Source: Rhizodiscina lignyota (taxonomy: Eukaryota). Taken from it: a DNA stretch of 64,000 nt. Both the position numbers and the translations under genes were made by a program. The notes under the pieces are model-generated. The model saw only the letters and a list, made by a program, of their open reading frames with translations. It was not told the DNA's origin and searched no databases. The first letter of the stretch is position 1. Every line of letters begins with the position of its first letter. This document shows, piece by piece, positions 40,238-49,539 of this stretch. The stretch lies in NCBI GenBank assembly GCA_010015805.1, contig ML978134.1, positions 124,001 to 188,000 on the forward strand, given 5' to 3'.

Positions 40238-41573
40238 CTATTCATTCCATAGCACTCTTGCCACGCTTCCGCCGTCGCTCATTGTAACATTAGTCGTCCC
40301 TGTCGCTATAGCTGTTTTCCCAATTTCCCCTGTACTAGAATCTCGTTTAAACACTCTAACATTTCCAGAGTATTGATTTGCAACAGCTAGCAAGCTGCCC
40401 TCCTTCGTTATCGCAAAGTTTCGCGGCCAGGCGCCTCCGGAGGGAGCCATTCCGATTAGAGATAGAGCGCCAGTATTCAGATCCACAGTGTAAGAAATAA
40501 GAGTGTCTGACGACTGGCCATCATATATACTGCGAGAATCGGTCCTTGTACTGAGAACGATCGCGTTGGAGATGGAGATGCGATCTCTGCCGGTATGACA
40601 AGCCCACGTGGATCCTGGGGTCCGCCGTCGCCAAAACCAGTCTGATATGTCGAGTCGTTGTAGAATTGTTGGAATCCGATGGTCTCATTTGGGTGGTACA
40701 GCACTTCGAAGCCGTGAAGCGAGTTTGTGAGCTCGCCAAGCACGTAAATGAAAGTCTTCTCCTGCCCTTTCACAAAAGCGCAGTGCCGAGGACCATTGCC
40801 AGGGGCGACAGAGTGAGGATCAAGCTCAAGGAGGCGATTATCCCAGCCGATGCGAAACGAGCGTATGGCATCCGCACCACGGTCCATCAGCACGACGTAC
40901 TTTCCGGTAGGGTCAAGGAAAATACCATGCGGATATGACTGGCTCTGCAGGGTGAAGTTCAGAACGGGCGACGGTCCTGGCTCTGAGATGTGATAGTGGA
41001 AAGTCTGCAGTCTAATCAGAGACGATTCATTTGTTGTATCCCAAACGGATGCTCCGCCGCCAGCATAGTGCGCCAAACCGAGTCTGTTTGGTGCGATGAT
41101 CGTGCCGTGAACCGGGCCATAATCTGTCGTGACATTGTTCAGGAGTGAGGGTTCTGAATAGCTTTGGCTGGTGCTGTCTATTGACCAAGACGATAAAGAG
41201 CCCGAATTTGGCAGAGTCTTGAGGCATTCAGAATCAGGCACGTCCCAAGTTTTCTGTATGCGCCACTCACGTAAGCCTCGTTCAAACAATAGAGAGTGTT
41301 TGTGCTCTTGTCCAATTCAAGCCAGCCAGGGTTCCAGCCACAATCGGCTGTTTGCCAAATAGTATTAAGAGAATAGTTACTTCCGGATTTAACTAGTGCA
41401 AGGTGATAAATAGGAGAGGCGTAGCTTGCAACCCAAAGACTTGGAAGCGAAGCATTATGCAGTGCCATGTTTGTGCTAAACAGGCTTGCTATTGGGAAGG
41501 ATGATAGCGACTGAAGCATGCCCGAGGTATTGAAATTGAAGGAGAAGGTGTCTTTCAAATATGAGAAATCCAT
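40238..41573 (-). pseudogene. Lactonase family 7-bladed beta-propeller (6-phosphogluconolactonase/muconate-lactonising-like) with an apparent frameshift at ~40562-40582
   Basis: QSYPHGIFLDPTG, DRGAD, GNGPRH, LGELTN, PAEIA, then WPRNFAI and AVANQ in a different frame. One normal intron near 41270-41218. Confidence 0.75.
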
Positions 41574-42396
41574 CGTGACATTGAAAGTCTCCAGATCCGG
41601 GCGTCGTATGCTTATGACAAGGCAAGAGTGGATCTTTTCGAGGACAAATAGCTTGGCGGCTTCAGAGGGTGAATTATATCCGAAGTGCTAGTGGACATGT
41701 CTCTCTACACTCTGTGTTGAAAGGAAATTCAATAACTTCTCACACATGAACGGTTGTGCAGTCGATGTGGTAGAGCCGTCGGCTAGTTTATTCCGGAAAC
41801 AGTTTCGTTAGTGCTGATCCAAGAAGTTGGAACCCATCGAAGTAGGTATTGATAGCTGTTCAGGCGGATCTTGTCGATAGCCGCAGAGCGGGACGAAAGT
41901 TTGAACGAGAAGTTCGAGTAACAGTAACCCGATTCGCCGACAGTTCAAAATATTCGAAATTACTACTCCATACTTGAGGTTCATAATCCTATGCTGCCTC
42001 CTCATATTTGCCTGGGGCACTCCAAGAGAATTGCATCGGCGGCGACTGTATATACGCACCCCCAACCTTCAGTATTAACCCACTTTCAGGAGTTAGTTGT
42101 GTTGGAAGTGAAACTGAGTTGTCTTCCTCACAGTGAACGTTTTCCTCCCTGTAAACTCCGTCGCCCAACAGCGCAGCGAACAGCGTTGACAATTTGACAT
42201 CGTGGAAGAGCGTACGCTTGGCATTTATATCAACATATCTGAGCTATTCGCATGTGGAAAAGATGCCTGAATGTGTTTGTATATGCAATTGTATATAACT
42301 CATAACAGGTACCCCTGTCGTGCACCGGGTCGCGTCGATCCTGAAAGAAGTAGGTCCCAAGTGGGTTATATTGCGTTAAAGTTAAAAAGTCTCTCT

Positions 42397-44406
42397 CTAA
42401 AATCTCTGCCAGGCTCTCTCCGTAGCTCTATCATCTCTTGAAAACTCAGCTCTTACTCTACGCTTCATTTCTTTAGGATCGAATCTCTCAGGTTCATGCT
42501 CAGGCTGGAGCTGGTCCTCAGGTTCACGGTCAACGCCAATATTTGCCAAAATAGTTAAACGGTAATCTCTGGACGCAGCGTCGGAAAGATCCTCTGAAGT
42601 TACGAGACTAGCAGAGACTGCGCCAAGCTGATTAGCCATGTCCTGCAATGAATCTTCCAAGGGAACAACATAGCCGTCTCCAAAAGCATCGACGGCTATG
42701 AGATGTCCATATACGCGTCCATCGGTGGCGTCTACGATCCACGAGCCTGAGTCTCCAGGAAGAAGAGCTATACCGATTTGATTAGCGACGGCGTACAGTG
42801 GTGACAATAATAAATATACACGTACCTTGATGAGTTTCACGAAGCCTCAGGCCATGTGTCTTAATTGACGGTTTGTTGAATGAAGTTGCAAAGCTCGAGT
42901 TATGACAGACAAGTTGTCCAGGAAGAGCGCCTCTAGATGCCGTAAGGACGTAGACTACATACTCCTCATCTACATTGGTCGATCCCATTTCAGTCAATTC
43001 AAAAGCTTGCTTATGCGGTGCCCCATGACTGTTAAACCAGTTCTAGAAAGAGTTAACCAGAGCAGAACTACTTCCATTCCTAAGGCACATACACTTATTG
43101 TGTCCAACGGCAGTCCAGTGATGCGCGCAATATCCATTCTTTGCCCATCACTCGGTTCTGGTTGGATTCGGTGCCAACCCTCAAGAAACTCGCGTTGATT
43201 CTTAGTTAGGCCAGTCCTGTGTGTCAGTGAGTGTGTCATGGCCTTGATATGCCTATCACCGACCGTCCATCTGTTTCTGCCCACCTTCAACAGACGCGCT
43301 AAGTACTTTGGGCTATCTACAAGTGCCCAATCGAAATCGGCTCTTTCATTGAGAGAATCGGCTTCAGCTGAAGAAGCAAACAACGATCCAATCTCTTCAT
43401 GTTTGTGCATGCAGCATCGCTGTTGCTCAACCGACTCCTCCGGATCGGTTTCTAATAATGCGAGCTTAACATTTGGTAATGCTTCTTGATCGAGTTCCAC
43501 GGATGTGATGCTCCCATCGTCGCTAAGAGCTTCCTTATGGAAATCGTCGATCTCCATGCCGCTATCAATACCGGATTCATCATCATCATCTGTTGACGTA
43601 GTAGAAGAAGTCTGGGTCCATTGACAGATGTGATTTGCAGTAAATGCAAAAAGACGGAAGTTGTCGTCTGACCACGTAACTTTTACTGGACTACTGAGAG
43701 TACCCCTTGGAGGCCCGGCCATCTCTTGTGGTGCTCCGGAGTCTAGTACACGAATTGGGAGGCAAATCTGGCTCATGTATCCAATATTCGATGGTTGATG
43801 CGCGAGCTCGCAGTCACAGCTGAGAGTTATGACCAGTTCTCCCGCGAGCAAGTTTGGAGGCAACTCGCTCACCAAGATCTTAAAAGAAGGTCTGTCGGCA
43901 TGGTCCGCGCTCGAGTATTCCTCTCTGACGACGGACTGGTTGAAGAACTGTCGTACTCGTTTGCACAAATGTTTGCTGCAGAATACTACCACGTACGGAG
44001 TGGCAGTTTCATAATTTTCTCCAAGCATCTTTAGTTTTACGGAGAGAGGCCCGTGTTGACCCTTGACTACCAACAAATGCCTGTGGAAATCATCTTTGAA
44101 TAATTCTTGTAGATCGTTGAAGCGATTCCGGATTGCATCGGGGATGTGGATATCGAACTGTTTCAAGTTCACGGGTTTCGGTCGTGAGAATCTTCTTTTC
44201 CCAACTTGTTCACCCTCGATAGTCGTGGATCGTCGCTTCAGGAGAGTGTCTCGTTTGGCACTGCTCGTCACAGAAGAGTAGCCAGAATCAGCGAACTCGG
44301 CTGATTTCTCTAAATCGAGCTGAGAACAGCCAGCAGGCTCAAATGGGTGAACCTTCTGTGATAATGAGCCTTCAAGTTCTAGATTAGAGACAGTTCGAGA
44401 CGCCAT
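42397..44406 (-). CDS. Trypsin-fold serine protease-like protein (~630 aa) with an inserted degenerate homeodomain; at least 3 exons
   Basis: FTANHI (His codon 43630-43632), DFDWALV (Asp 43330-43332), PGDSGSWIVD (Ser 42748-42750), VYGHLIA. Introns 43092-43043 (GTATGT..TTAAC..TAG) and 42825-42768 (GTACGT..CTAAT..TAG) join three ORF fragments in frame. Confidence 0.85.
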
Positions 44407-44911
44407 GTTTGTGCGCGTGGTGATCACTGGTGGATAACGACAGCCCCATTCGAAGACTCCATATCGTGTACCGTAATCATTATCTCGCTGTCTGGGCGAG
44501 CACGTCGCACACCTTGAAGCTGCTCAAGGTAATATAATGATTGCGTAGGCTCATGTATCGAGGCATGCACCTGACCTCATCGTATAAAACGTTGAGGGCG
44601 GGGCCTGGAATGGGGCGAGGTGCATCACGGCGCTTGCTAAACTGGGCAATGCATACGTTAACGAATTAGGGGCTGCCCTCCCTTGCAGAGTTGAGATAAA
44701 TGGTCGCGTGAACTCTGCATTTCCCAGCCTTACCTATGTAGCCCGACCGTCACACGCCCACTCTGCGGATCTGTTATTAACGTTATGATTGGCCCCATCT
44801 CATTATTCAGGCCATTCAGTTGCTGAAGCCTGTTCTCCCAGTACACTCTTCGCTGTTCAATGGGCCTATGCAGTTGACTTCTTGCATCAGCATACTACTG
44901 TCCAGGTCACT

Positions 44912-46099
44912 ATGGTAGATTCTAACATATATCCGCATTTCCCGTTATCGAGGGTTAGCAAATCAGAGCTTCGACGTCTATGTAGAACTTTGTGGTCGTG
45001 GGAGTTTTGCTCCATATGCGAGAAGCAGAGCGCGAGATGTCCTTCGAAGGACTGTGCATCTCATCAAGAAAAGCGCCTCAATCGGTTCCTTGACTATTAC
45101 AAACGAATATGCGCGACGTATGAGCCCTGCATTGAAGATGGAGCGCGTCCAATTCTGCGTACACACGAAGACCTCTGCAGCCTGATCAAAGCGATTCGAG
45201 AAGGCTCAAATGTTCCACGGTCGGAACTCAACAGCCTCACCCTGATCATGAGCTCGACATCGCCAGATAGAGAAAAGAATATAGCTATTAGTATGGCGGT
45301 GGATGTATTGACGATGTTTGGCTGTGGCTCTGATCAAGGAAACCCGGCTTTGCTAGAGCAGGGTCTCAACAACGCTCCGTGGAATCCGGAAGAGAGCCTG
45401 CACCAATTTGTTCGAAACTCTTTCACGGAGATGAACCATCCAGCTTTCGAGGATACCAGTTCCACATCTTACCACGAGGTGTGTAGGGCCCTCGTAGCTC
45501 GGAAGCTCTCCAAGCATGCAGGCCTGTCTTTCAAGGCAACAGAAAATCTACGACACCATTTGCGCCTGGATAGGAAGGAGGGACATATACAGATATTCCA
45601 TTATACTTCATTCATAAAGGAGCATCTTCGCTGTACACGAGACTGCATCGACTCTACCACCGACGGCTCAATGTGTTTTCCTAACGGTGTTCTGCCTCGC
45701 CAGCTGTGCCTTGAAGTCCTCGACTCAATCCAGAAGGTCCTCTTCCCATTGACAGACAAGAAGTCGCGCGCCTTACTCCTATCCTTAGTCTCATCTGAAG
45801 GGTTTGACCCCGACACACTTCGCTTCGAGTCAACAAGCATCCGCCGACCAGACGAGAAGGACATCCCATTCCTCTTCCTCGGAGATAGACTTGCAAACTT
45901 ATATGCCGAGCTAGAGAACCCTCAGCCACGTAACTGGCTCGATAAGTGGCTGCAGCGGAAGAGTAATGCTCGGCATGTGATGTTGACTACGCTGGTCGGA
46001 GTTCTAATCGCTGTTCTCTTGGGTATTTGTGGGCTGGCGTTGGCTGGCTTCCAGGCTTGGATTTCCTGGCAACAGTGGAAGCATCCGGTGAGCAACTAG
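44912..46099 (+). CDS. Uncharacterised 395-aa protein with N-terminal C-x2-C-x6-C-x4-C cluster and C-terminal membrane segment; single exon
   Basis: Long ORF; TENLRHHLRLD, SIQKVLFP, FLGDRLANLYAELENPQP, then ~30 hydrophobic residues (HVMLTTLVGVLIAVLLGICGLALAGFQAWISW). Confidence 0.85.
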   Translation: MVDSNIYPHFPLSRVSKSELRRLCRTLWSWEFCSICEKQSARCPSKDCASHQEKRLNRFLDYYKRICATYEPCIEDGARPILRTHEDLCSLIKAIREGSNVPRSELNSLTLIMSSTSPDREKNIAISMAVDVLTMFGCGSDQGNPALLEQGLNNAPWNPEESLHQFVRNSFTEMNHPAFEDTSSTSYHEVCRALVARKLSKHAGLSFKATENLRHHLRLDRKEGHIQIFHYTSFIKEHLRCTRDCIDSTTDGSMCFPNGVLPRQLCLEVLDSIQKVLFPLTDKKSRALLLSLVSSEGFDPDTLRFESTSIRRPDEKDIPFLFLGDRLANLYAELENPQPRNWLDKWLQRKSNARHVMLTTLVGVLIAVLLGICGLALAGFQAWISWQQWKHPVSN

Positions 46100-46811: not shown

Positions 46812-49539
46812 TCACGACGCTTTCTTCCGATCCTTCCTCCGACTCGGGCCCGCAGACAACGCACCACTGACAATTCTTTGTAACCCAGTGCGCTGTCTGT
46901 TCAACCCAGCAAAATCAATTATTGTTCCTCTCCGCTCAGTATCCATCGTTCCAGTGCTACCTCTTCTGCTCTGAGGGCCTGCGCTGGCTTGGCCAGAGAA
47001 GGCCTCCATACCACTCAGATGTGACGGCCGCCTTGCCGCCATTCTTGCGGCCTCTTCAGCCTCTTTGCGCTGTAAGCTCTCGCTTGGTAGCAAAATGGCG
47101 CGGTCCAGGGCGTACGGAAGACCGCGATGGCGACCACGAAGCTGCATAGCTATGATGACGAGTTTGCTCAATACCCGAAATTGAGCAGAGAAGCTGGCGT
47201 TCGTACCGGGATACCCGAGACTGAGACCAACAGTGCCGTAGGCGGATACGATCTCGAACAGACACGCAAAGATGGTGAAGGCGTAGTCGGAATTGTTCTG
47301 AAGCTTGTCTCCTTCCACGATGCAGACGATAAACAGGCCCAGGAAGACATACCACAGGTCGAAAGATAGTTGGCGTCGCAAATGTGCACCGATGTAGCTT
47401 GTCTCTCCCTCATTCTCGGTTTCTTCTTCACCTTTACCGTATATGCCGAGCGATTTCTCCTCGTAGACGTTCGTGCGGCGGATTGAGATAGCAATCGGAT
47501 AAACAGAAATGTACATCATGATCAAGTAGGATACTTGGATGGCGGGATGAAGTTGGGCAAGGCTGACGACAGAAAAGCCAGCAGTACGGGTAGAGAAAGC
47601 TTGATAAACACCATCAAGGAATCGAATACCGCCAGGCAGGACTGTAACAACATCATCGTTGAGCTGGAATATTGTCAGCGAATAAGATCACTTTCGTCGA
47701 GGGTATACCAGACTAACGTCAAGAATAATGAAGAATATGATATCAATGGCGTTTAGGATGACCAAGATCGCAAACAGCCACCATGTTGCCTGTTTGGGAA
47801 AGAGGAGTGTGAAGCATCGACGTGGATGATCGAGCAAAAATTGTAGCTCCTCGTAGAGAGGGGTACCGTACGTGACCATTTTTGACTGAGCCCAGATGAC
47901 AAAACGAAGCATGCAAGGGAAGCCTGTATTCCCAATCACAATCAGGAAAGATCCAATCAGTAACGGAAAAACGGCTTTTTGGAATGAGCTCATCGAATCC
48001 GGCGTCAGAGTGAAGCCCAAGTCTGTGAAGTGCGACATTGCCGTGAAAATGCCCCACCAGGTCGGATTCTGCGATACAGCCTCAGGAACGGACTTGTAAC
48101 TGGTATGGAGAATCCAAGGCCAGAAACAGACGAGACCGAGCATGTGAAATCCGAGATAGTAAATGGTCAGTATCCATGCCAGAGTCTTAAGCGCCCGGTA
48201 CTCTACACCGCCGAGCTCTTCTCTCTGGTCTTCCGTAAGGTCAATGAAAAGCGAGTTTCTTCCTATCGTCGGCGCATAACTCAGGTAAGGTATCGGATCA
48301 CGCTCTCGATCGCTTCTGCCACTAAGAAAGCTGGTAAATGTTCCAGTACGCCCACGTCTGCGAAGTTGCATACTTTTGTTATCGTCGTCACCATCCTTGG
48401 AGCGCCTCGGCGATATTATGTTTGATAAGTTTGGCACCCATGTGAGATGAGGGTGACCCTTCTTTTGTGGCTCTGTCTCTGATTTGAGTGGGTGATCATC
48501 CAGGTTGAGCTCGTTCGGATCGTTAGAAGTAACGCGCTTTGCACGTTTTGTTTCATCTTCGTCTCCAGAAACAGTGTGATCAATCTCGTCTTCATCTTCT
48601 TCCACATGGCGCGGTATTTCACCACGATCAAAATCTCGCGGCCCAGGTACTCGAATCTTGGCCTTGTGGTTCCGTTGATTTTGGAGGAATGCAATGTTTT
48701 GTTCCCTTGTCCGTTGTTGTGGCATACGCTCCACACTATCCTGTGTCGCCGTTCTCCCCGGTCTTGGAGGCCGAACTTCATCAGCGAAAACAATGTCTCG
48801 TTGGAAAGTCGGTGACTCAAGGTTTGGTGATGATGGACTCCCCGGGCTTTGTGCTTCCGGAGTTTGGGTGCCATCGTGCAGTGTTGACCCACGAGCTTGG
48901 CCTTGCACCGCAATGTCAGAATCCGACTCGCTCTCCTTAGATTTGCCATTCATGTTGGCATCACCATTCTGTGAACGGAGAACGCGAATCTCACGCCCAC
49001 CAACACCACGCTCTTCTCTGTCCTGATCTAGGTCTGCTCTCATCTCACTCTTTGTCCGTGACCTTGTTCGTGTTCGGCGAAATGCTCGAGCATCGCGAAC
49101 CACGTTCTGAAATCGCTTTTCGAACCAATACAGCCGTATGAACACGACCATGGCATTGATCCAGATGGGGTTCGCAACGAAAGCGATTAAGAGGAGGGTA
49201 ACTTGTTGGGACAAGAATAGATTGTTGATATCGATCGTGTTGAGGCCACTCTGCGTTGAAGCTCCACTGGCGAAGAATAGAGCGTCTGTGTAAGACATGC
49301 CACCGACGCCGTATACGATCACCGAGCCAAGCATGACCAGGAAGATAAGGTATATGTCTATGCAGCAACGGAATCAGTAAATTCCAACAAAAGTGTGTTT
49401 ACGGGACGCCCATACAATGCAGGACTATAAAGTTGAAATGCCGAAAGAACGGCAAACTGGTAATCTTTGGCAGGTATTTCTTAACCCACCCTGCCCTCTC
49501 ATTCGCTACCAATTGCAATTTAACCCATTTGCCGAACAT
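46812..49539 (-). CDS. TRK1: Trk-family potassium transporter, 3 exons
   Basis: Four pore motifs ASTQSGLN, HFTDLGF, STRTAGF and SAYGTVGLS; MMYISVYP; RGRHRGLP. Confidence 0.94.

Follow-up and report, generated by a model that had tools for sequence, protein, structure and literature searches.

Transcription factors that are tail-anchored in membranes are usually activated by proteolytic release. A tail-anchored factor of the NAC family is named in PMC9545932. In the plasma-membrane sensor of yeast, the protease Ssy5 cleaves the latent factors Stp1 and Stp2, and is itself activated through the loss of a phosphodegron-bearing prodomain (PMC8781990, PMC3145550). SltB of Aspergillus nidulans cleaves itself and the C2H2 factor SltA (PMC4985261), and NAL1 hydrolyses the FZP protein (PMC12012508). 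In a census of fungal serine proteases, Ssy5 is given as the sole fungal invention (PMC5567314). Proteases are also encoded beside membrane-acting proteins. Among 1,884 gasdermin genes of fungi, 80% lie no more than 10 kb from a protease gene (PMC8851545). Some of these gasdermin-linked proteases carry NACHT, WD40, TPR or kinase parts (PMC12881547, PMC8851545), and a bacterial trypsin-like protease cleaving a gasdermin has been described (PMC13475620). Here we describe a pair of divergent genes in a 64,000-nucleotide stretch of the genome of Rhizodiscina lignyota (Dothideomycetes), namely positions 124,001 to 188,000 of contig ML978134.1, hereafter called the window. Gene A codes for a putative trypsin-like protease and gene B for a predicted tail-anchored membrane protein. 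The pair constitutes an undescribed two-part system akin to protease-plus-partner modules, and among the readings considered below it is most likely a proteolytic switch.

Literature searches retrieved no description of either family or of the pair. The word "trypsin" occurs 0 times in the texts of PMC9815663, a catalogue of the domains of fungal NOD-like receptors (NLR), of the gasdermin-protease paper PMC8851545 and of PMC12881547, a review of 2025, although the supplement of PMC8851545 may list other protease types.

The association of the two genes was analysed in metagenome loci around gene B relatives (417 pattern matches, 140 of them confirmed and the best 80 loci retained). Six-frame stop-to-stop fragments of these loci were searched with a profile of the gene A family, and loci sharing at least 95% nucleotide identity in the partner gene were merged, which gave 65 groups. 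Of the 36 groups whose upstream flank measures 1500 bp or more, 30 have a gene A relative in divergent orientation within 1200 bp of the partner, and 32 of 39 have one when a flank of 1000 bp suffices. All protease matches lie on the upstream side of the partner and on the strand opposite to it, with a median gap between alignment ends of 411 bp (range 278-1084) in the linked loci. As a control, the downstream side was searched in the same way. Of the 27 groups extending 1500 bp or more in that direction, 0 carry the protease (179,499 bp searched). Stricter merging by amino-acid identity left 24 groups at 70%, of which 20 are linked, and 16 groups at 60%, of which 13 are linked. The pairing frequency is far above chance. 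A reading of the window made earlier without database searches (the sequence-only reading) had proposed to look for an enrichment of protease neighbours among the homologues of the partner, and such an enrichment is what the upstream and downstream counts reveal.

The pair was also found in named genomes. Consecutive locus tags were assigned to the two genes in Peltula sp. (M1816_002942/3), Icmadophila ericetorum (MMC33_005082/3) and Exophiala spinifera (PV08_01999/01998), and tags two apart in Phlyctema vagabunda (PVAG01_10864/10866). In Podospora didyma, whose identifiers say nothing about position, one 3.9-Mb contig carries both genes, and they are on separate contigs in the fragmented assembly of Geoglossum. 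With the window included, the pair is present in five classes, the Dothideomycetes, Lichinomycetes, Lecanoromycetes, Eurotiomycetes and Leotiomycetes, across which the partner is conserved at 33-62% identity. The outer neighbours vary with the lineage, from Lactonase and TrkH genes in the window to Abhydrolase_11, GH32 and others elsewhere. Linked members are scattered through both family trees with unlinked ones among them, and the pairing therefore looks ancestral with occasional loss. Genes A and B are one conserved two-gene module of the filamentous ascomycetes (Pezizomycotina), and a functional coupling between them is very probable.

Both genes are under purifying selection. The gene-wide ratio of nonsynonymous to synonymous substitution rates (dN/dS), calculated from 7 pairs of one lineage, was 0.17-0.25 in the partner and 0.19-0.64 in the first lobe of the protease, and no sign of diversifying selection was seen in the partner at the whole-gene level. 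A Mantel test of co-divergence on 15 loci, mostly from one lineage, gave r = 0.93, a value reached by 0 of 999 permutations, which shows shared descent only.

A full HMMER scan of 1.84 billion representatives with the gene A product retrieved 856 of them at E up to 0.001, of which 335 remain when the limit is set at 1e-10. The relatives typically match two stretches of the query, at residues ~35-375 and 465-575. Word-indexed searches with exon 1 or with the family alignment had the gene A product itself as their sole match. Residue conservation was counted in an alignment of 53 members, in which the catalytic His (motif TAxH), Asp (D-x-A-L) and Ser/Cys (G-D-S-G) follow each other in this order, as in the PA clan. 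The nucleophile (position 517) is Ser in 42 of the 53 sequences and Cys in the other 11, and Gly515, Gly518 and Trp520 are invariant. This restriction of position 517 to Ser or Cys is the pattern expected of an active PA-clan peptidase family, and, judged from the alignment, gene A is likely to code for a catalytically active protease. Every linked protease copy with a readable motif retains G-x-S/C-G. In three loci (L010:1-9511, L012:1-9405 and also L009), three tandem protease copies lie upstream of one partner, and all of them have the Cys nucleophile (GDCGSW).

The sequence-only reading had described the protease as having a complete triad and no signal peptide. His259, Asp359 and Ser517 are indeed present and conserved in the relatives. 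The highest 19-residue hydrophobic window of the product reaches only 1.39, so that the protein has neither a signal peptide nor a membrane segment. About 93 residues separate Asp and Ser in chymotrypsin. The median spacing in the gene A family is 94 residues, and the 158 residues of the gene A product (P0001) are the largest value among 52 sequences.

The double beta-barrel fold of PA-clan peptidases was examined through the ESM Atlas model of P0001 (predicted template-modelling score, pTM, 0.56). This model has bacterial S1 peptidases as structural neighbours (TM by target 0.70), followed by a Trypsin_2 cluster (0.67) and by Nal1_C or Peptidase_S64 clusters (0.59-0.63). At the sequence level, Pfam Trypsin_2 matched 2 of the 53 members weakly (best E 0.028, below the family cut-off), whereas Peptidase_S64 and Nal1_C matched none of the 53 at E up to 1. 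PDB sequence and profile searches with the whole family or with the second lobe alone found no protease. P0001 itself has no Pfam protease match, the homeodomain being the only Pfam family above its cut-off. The gene A family is without a match in the Pfam copy used. That copy has no DUF8035 model, and a newer release may cover part of the family; P0246, a cluster mate of the relative P0101, is named "DUF8035 domain-containing protein" by UniRef. From its motifs and its model, the gene A product is probably a cytosolic endopeptidase of the PA clan (chymotrypsin/trypsin) with a Ser nucleophile, replaced by Cys in some relatives.

The homeodomain of P0001 (PF00046, residues 396-444) scores 28.4 bits against a cut-off of 22.9. 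It is located between Asp359 and Ser517, the sole such case among the 53 aligned relatives, and intron 1 interrupts it after homeodomain position 46. As the excess in Asp-to-Ser spacing is the homeodomain, the latter is an insertion into the protease. The sequence-only reading had missed it. Homeodomains usually have the recognition helix WFxNxR, with Asn51 and Arg53. The insert has WFNSHG at this place, aligned to WFQNRR of solved homeodomains.

Accessory domains were counted in 150 listed proteins, which are P0001 and 149 listed relatives. Domains of the transcription-factor type were above the Pfam cut-off in 9 of them: the homeodomain (P0001), C2H2 (P0133), Myb (P0137, P0225), Zn_clus (P0168), Fungal_trans_2 (P0096), NDT80_PhoG (P0193), HLH (P0209) and GATA_AreA (P0125). 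Other parts are limited to single members, namely a protein kinase, a DUF7025-type AAA ATPase, a transglutaminase, SH3, muHD, DUF6594 and MFS. The ATPase type fused to the protease domain in P0217 is also met in a locus without a protease (L025:1439-5685, plus strand), whose upstream genes code for DUF7025 and for an AAA lid domain. In the metagenome, C2H2 and/or Myb share a stop-free frame with the second protease lobe in 5 of the 30 linked groups (L015, L041, L045, L047, L048); a sixth such fusion, L038, is slightly under the cut-off, and L078 carries DUF7896.

A second recurrent feature of the family is the motif DSGYxS/T near the N-terminus. At least one copy is present in 44 of the 53 members and two copies in 22, the second being near the C-terminus, and 23 of 35 linked protease copies have the motif. 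DSGxxS/T is the consensus of phosphodegrons. A "DSGxxT" motif appears in PMC2287288. From its resemblance to this consensus, the family motif may be a phosphodegron; a site of self-cleavage, with Tyr at P1, is just as possible.

Gene B had 94 matches in an indexed search, itself included, all of them from Pezizomycotina or without an organism name. Its paralogues P0019 and P0030 in this genome are 44% and 41% identical to it, and the 806-kb contig that includes the window also bears one of the two. A remnant of a gene B juxtamembrane and membrane segment lies ~450 bp 3' of gene B, close to where the Trk gene of the other strand ends (46 aa aligned by tblastn at 39% identity; i-Evalue 2e-6 with the hidden Markov model (HMM) of the family, 900 bp searched). 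As the sequence-only reading had stated, the protein has an N-terminal Cys cluster and a hydrophobic C-terminus. The motif Cys33-x2-Cys36-x6-Cys43-x4-Cys48 is conserved, its four residues being present in 50, 44, 49 and 48 of 52 relatives. Trp28 and Trp30 are conserved too, His216, Glu268, Asp299, Arg349 and Gln381 are invariant (52/52), and His230 is found in 51 of the 52. The juxtamembrane and C-terminal stretch is strongly conserved up to the extreme C-terminus, QAWIxYQQWKHP. The sole strongly hydrophobic stretch covers residues 352-386 of 395, with the same pattern in both paralogues. An AlphaFold model (mean predicted local distance difference test, pLDDT, 89.8; pTM 0.85) is mainly helical, with 18 helices, three short strands (206-229) and a long terminal helix (354-390). 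Hydrophobicity and model both predict a tail-anchored membrane protein without signal peptide, whose helical bulk faces the cytosol.

No Pfam family matched the gene B relatives, DpnD_N being below threshold in 10 of the 52. At E up to 1, 27 Pfam families appeared among these relatives, and there is no gasdermin family among the 25 most-matched, in line with the sequence-only reading, which had recognised no gasdermin motif. It had also called for structural comparison. This yielded a confident model, but a Foldseek search of it against PDB gave nothing at E up to 0.001, and a PDB sequence profile search with the family found no solved relative. Chains of cyclin or TFIIB type had a Foldseek probability of at most 0.07, with no confirmation from VIA. 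Plant DUF247 (TM 0.36) and fungal DUF6601 (TM 0.35-0.40) were weak Atlas neighbours that Pfam scans did not support, and they stand as leads only. The fold of the globular part is unrecognised at the level of the model. We do not claim a new fold, because the VIA lists contain only matches of the terminal helix and barely probe the globular part, and with it the beta-sheet core that a gasdermin fold would have.

The layout of the locus is given in the table below. The divergent arrangement described by the sequence-only reading, with about 505 bp between the two genes and a lactonase and a Trk gene on either side, is found again here, the starts being at 44406 (minus) and 44912 (plus). The k-mers C[AT]CAGCC, enriched in related loci, are absent from the intergenic region of the window, and a shared promoter motif was therefore dropped. 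Intron 1 of gene A is confirmed by P0001 and by the homeodomain score in Pfam, which climbs from 17.5 to 28.4 bits when the exons are joined. P0001 is annotated as hypothetical protein NA57DRAFT_60447 (689 aa). Position 42397, taken before as the end of the gene, is the stop of an unspliced alternative, since exon 3 continues to a stop at 42397-42399 without a third splicing, whereas the annotated protein splices onward and ends at 41989; either end may be the one in use.

Table. Features of the gene A/gene B locus (positions in the window; ORF, open reading frame)
Feature	Position	Strand	Basis or remark
Gene A	ATG at 44406 down to 42397, or 41989 in annotated model	minus	ORF and annotated protein P0001
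Gene A exon 1, residues 1-438 (DSGYSS motif, first protease lobe with His259 and Asp359, most of the homeodomain insert)	43093..44406	minus	ORF; 100% identity to P0001; HMM match 257.9 bits
Gene A intron 1, 50 nt, GTATGT...TAG, within homeodomain helix 3	43043..43092	minus	Sequence reading and P0001
Gene A exon 2, residues 439-510 and first base of codon 511	42826..43042	minus	Sequence reading and P0001
Gene A intron 2, 58 nt, GTACGT...TAG, just 5' of GDSG motif	42768..42825	minus	Sequence and P0001
Gene A exon 3, second protease lobe with Gly-Asp-Ser517-Gly	42457..42767	minus	Sequence, P0001, HMM
Gene A annotated third intron, 240 nt	42217..42456	minus	P0001
Gene A annotated last exon, ending 41989	41989..42216	minus	P0001; last exon not conserved by relatives
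DSGYSS motif, residues 40-45	44272..44289	minus	Columns conserved in 42-47 of 53 sequences
Catalytic His259 codon, TANH motif	43630..43632	minus	His in 52/53 aligned relatives
Catalytic Asp359 codon, DWAL motif	43330..43332	minus	Asp in 53/53 aligned relatives
Homeodomain-like insert, residues 396-444, across intron 1	43025..43221	minus	Pfam PF00046, 28.4 bits
Ser517 codon	42748-42750	minus	GDSG at 42756
Shared divergent intergenic region, 505 bp	44407..44911		Presumed bidirectional promoter
Gene B, single exon, 395 aa, predicted tail-anchored protein	44912..46099	plus	ORF, model, relatives
Gene B Cys33/36/43/48	45008-45055	plus	Family alignment
Gene B predicted membrane helix, residues 354-390	45971-46081	plus	Hydrophobicity and model
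Relic of gene B juxtamembrane and membrane segment	46553..46684	plus	Family profile positions 336-381
Lactonase-family neighbour ORF	40238-41573		Pfam Lactonase
TrkH-family potassium transporter neighbour ORF	46812-49334	opposite to gene B	Pfam TrkH

The repeated fusions to DNA-binding domains, the conservation of the pair and the precedents of Ssy5, SltB and NAL1 lead us to infer a switch that signals by proteolysis at a membrane, along the lines of Ssy5 or SltB, which we put forward tentatively and with a confidence somewhat short of an even chance. Both genes would be expressed from the shared divergent promoter of ~0.4-0.5 kb, and their products would act on each other. The tail-anchored gene B protein would hold or regulate the protease, or be its substrate. 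Signal-triggered cleavage by the protease, of itself and/or of its partner, would release a soluble fragment acting on transcription. The DNA-binding parts found on the protease, which are a degenerate homeodomain in the window and C2H2, Myb, Zn2Cys6, bHLH or NDT80 in relatives, would fit such an output. Catalytic activity, physical interaction, the roles of cutter and substrate and the transcriptional output are all predicted steps of this scheme.

Several points weigh against the proposed switch. Cleavage, binding, localisation and expression are predictions for both families, drawn from sequence and analogy, and the trypsin fold of gene A comes only from motifs, spacing and the Atlas model with its pTM of 0.56. 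Six of the 36 groups lack an adjoining protease (L025, L034/L035, L063, L064, L068, L070); in L070 the protease is 5 kb from the partner, and a search of the remaining exception loci at relaxed thresholds found no cryptic protease. In Apiospora aurea the matches of the two genes are on separate contigs. About 9 in 10 members of the gene A family have no DNA-binding domain, and the insert of the window may not bind DNA, as it is without the usual Asn51 and Arg53. Some of the fusions in databases may be merged gene models, such as P0096 with its two protease copies, and the five linked loci with transcription-factor domains are not independent, because they belong mostly to one related group sharing an Abhydrolase_11 neighbour. 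Finally, NLR- or repeat-type parts occur in 3 of the 150 proteins, as NACHT-WD40 (P0232), TPR (P0239) and ankyrin repeats (one member), and such NLR-like architectures, together with the tandem protease copies, fit an immune role better.

The proposed switch could be part of a wider scheme, which we consider doubtful. It would be an undescribed receptor-activated proteolysis pathway present across much of the Pezizomycotina, with gene B as a receptor or tether of new fold and the protease as a portable activation module, fused repeatedly in evolution to output or sensor parts such as DNA-binding domains of at least six classes, NACHT-WD40, TPR or kinase.

A rather unlikely alternative is that the two genes are coupled otherwise than in a switch, the protease controlling the level or maturation of a partner enzyme or receptor, or both products being subunits of one membrane-associated complex. 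The invariant polar residues and the four-cysteine motif of the partner resemble a metal site or an active site, its model is as confident as expected for a folded enzyme or receptor domain, and most gene A family proteases have no accessory domain at all. However, no known enzyme fold was recognised in the partner, and neither the repeated fusions to several DNA-binding classes nor the NLR-like fusions would be explained.

Distinctly unlikely, in our view, is a protease-activated membrane executioner following the logic of gasdermin/HET-Q2, in which the protease would be the sensor or activator, and cleavage of the cytosolic domain of the gene B protein would free its membrane part to oligomerise and damage a membrane in a cell-death or immune module. 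The adjacency in 30 of 36 groups is comparable to the 80% of fungal gasdermins (PMC8851545), and a protease placed N-terminal to NACHT-WD40 (P0232), before TPR (P0239) or with ankyrin or kinase parts recalls the gasdermin-linked proteases (PMC12881547). The three tandem protease copies in one lineage, the three partner paralogues in the genome, a C-terminus (QAWIxYQQWKHP) unusually conserved for a simple anchor and the bacterial trypsin-like protease that cuts a gasdermin (PMC13475620) would also agree with it. Yet the partner is mostly helical and appears permanently anchored, it has no Pfam gasdermin match in 52 members, and neither family is matched by a PADLOC defence model. Its conservation across classes (33-62% identity) and a dN/dS of ~0.2, with no diversifying selection seen over the whole gene, also count against this reading. 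The proposed switch is favoured over a cell-death effector because transcription-factor-type domains outnumber NLR-type parts (9/150 against 3/150) and because the nearest characterised proteases, Ssy5, SltB and NAL1, are signalling enzymes that cleave transcription regulators. Of the protease-effector module suggested by the sequence-only reading, the unit itself, the triad and the tail-anchored non-gasdermin partner thus stand, whereas an immune or cell-death role is neither shown nor the best fit.

That the two genes share only a promoter region, as a passive relic of synteny without functional tie, is highly improbable: divergent pairs are common in compact fungal genomes and the other neighbours do differ between lineages, but this pair alone persists as its surroundings change, in five classes and with partner identity down to 33%, always head-to-head and with no protease copy on the other side.

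Lichen fungi, plant-associated fungi and black yeasts are among the many filamentous ascomycetes in which the two families occur, and neither family has a name or an assigned function. Few gene pairs of fungi stay head-to-head in five classes amid changing surroundings, and such persistence hints strongly at a direct functional link, which makes the finding relevant to research on fungal signalling and cell death. If the proteolytic switch is true, it would be a new route from the membrane to gene expression or cell death, and it would account for the fusions of the protease domain with such a variety of transcription factors and with NLR-type sensors. If the receptor-activated pathway is true as well, a further fungal system would stand besides the Ssy1-Ptr3-Ssy5 (SPS) sensor and the Slt pathway, and the gene A family would join Ssy5 as the second fungal invention among PA-clan protease families, adding to the census in PMC5567314.

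Compared with known systems, gene B resembles the plant NAC tail-anchored transcription factors in having a cytosolic domain held by a single predicted C-terminal membrane helix, and differs from them in having no recognisable known DNA-binding domain. HET-Q1/HET-Q2 and other gasdermin-protease clusters likewise have a membrane-acting protein beside a protease, with a similar rate of clustering (PMC8851545, PMC12881547). The proteases there are of the subtilisin (S8) or caspase-like CHAT type, and transcription-factor fusions are not described in the excerpts of these papers, whereas gene B is predicted to be helical and tail-anchored and is not a gasdermin. NAL1 is linked to gene A through the Nal1_C clusters among the structural and feature neighbours of the P0001 Atlas model, but this trypsin-like protein is from plants, forms a soluble cage of two trimers without a membrane partner, and has no match to gene A at the sequence level. 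The SltB/SltA cation-stress pathway is, like the pair, specific to Pezizomycotina and relies on a chymotrypsin-like serine protease (PMC4985261, PMC4557415); by description, the level at which the two were compared, SltB differs in its N-terminal pseudokinase, and no tail-anchored partner is described for it in the excerpts of PMC4985261. Ssy5 (MEROPS S64), the protease of the yeast amino-acid sensor, is an intracellular fungal serine endoprotease of the PA clan, as the gene A product is predicted to be. It acts at a membrane together with a membrane protein and switches on transcription factors through limited cleavage (PMC8781990, PMC3145550, PMC5567314), as the gene A protease would in the proposed switch. 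In both, the N-terminal part is regulatory or may be so, with a serine-rich phospho-motif, and the Atlas neighbours of P0001 include clusters with 10-22% Peptidase_S64 members. The gene A family nevertheless lacks a Peptidase_S64 match (0/53, E up to 1), and the partner of Ssy5 is a transporter-like receptor, whereas gene B is tail-anchored and of unrecognised fold. In contrast to the Ssy5 system, genes A and B adjoin each other, and some members of the gene A family have a DNA-binding domain fused to the protease itself.

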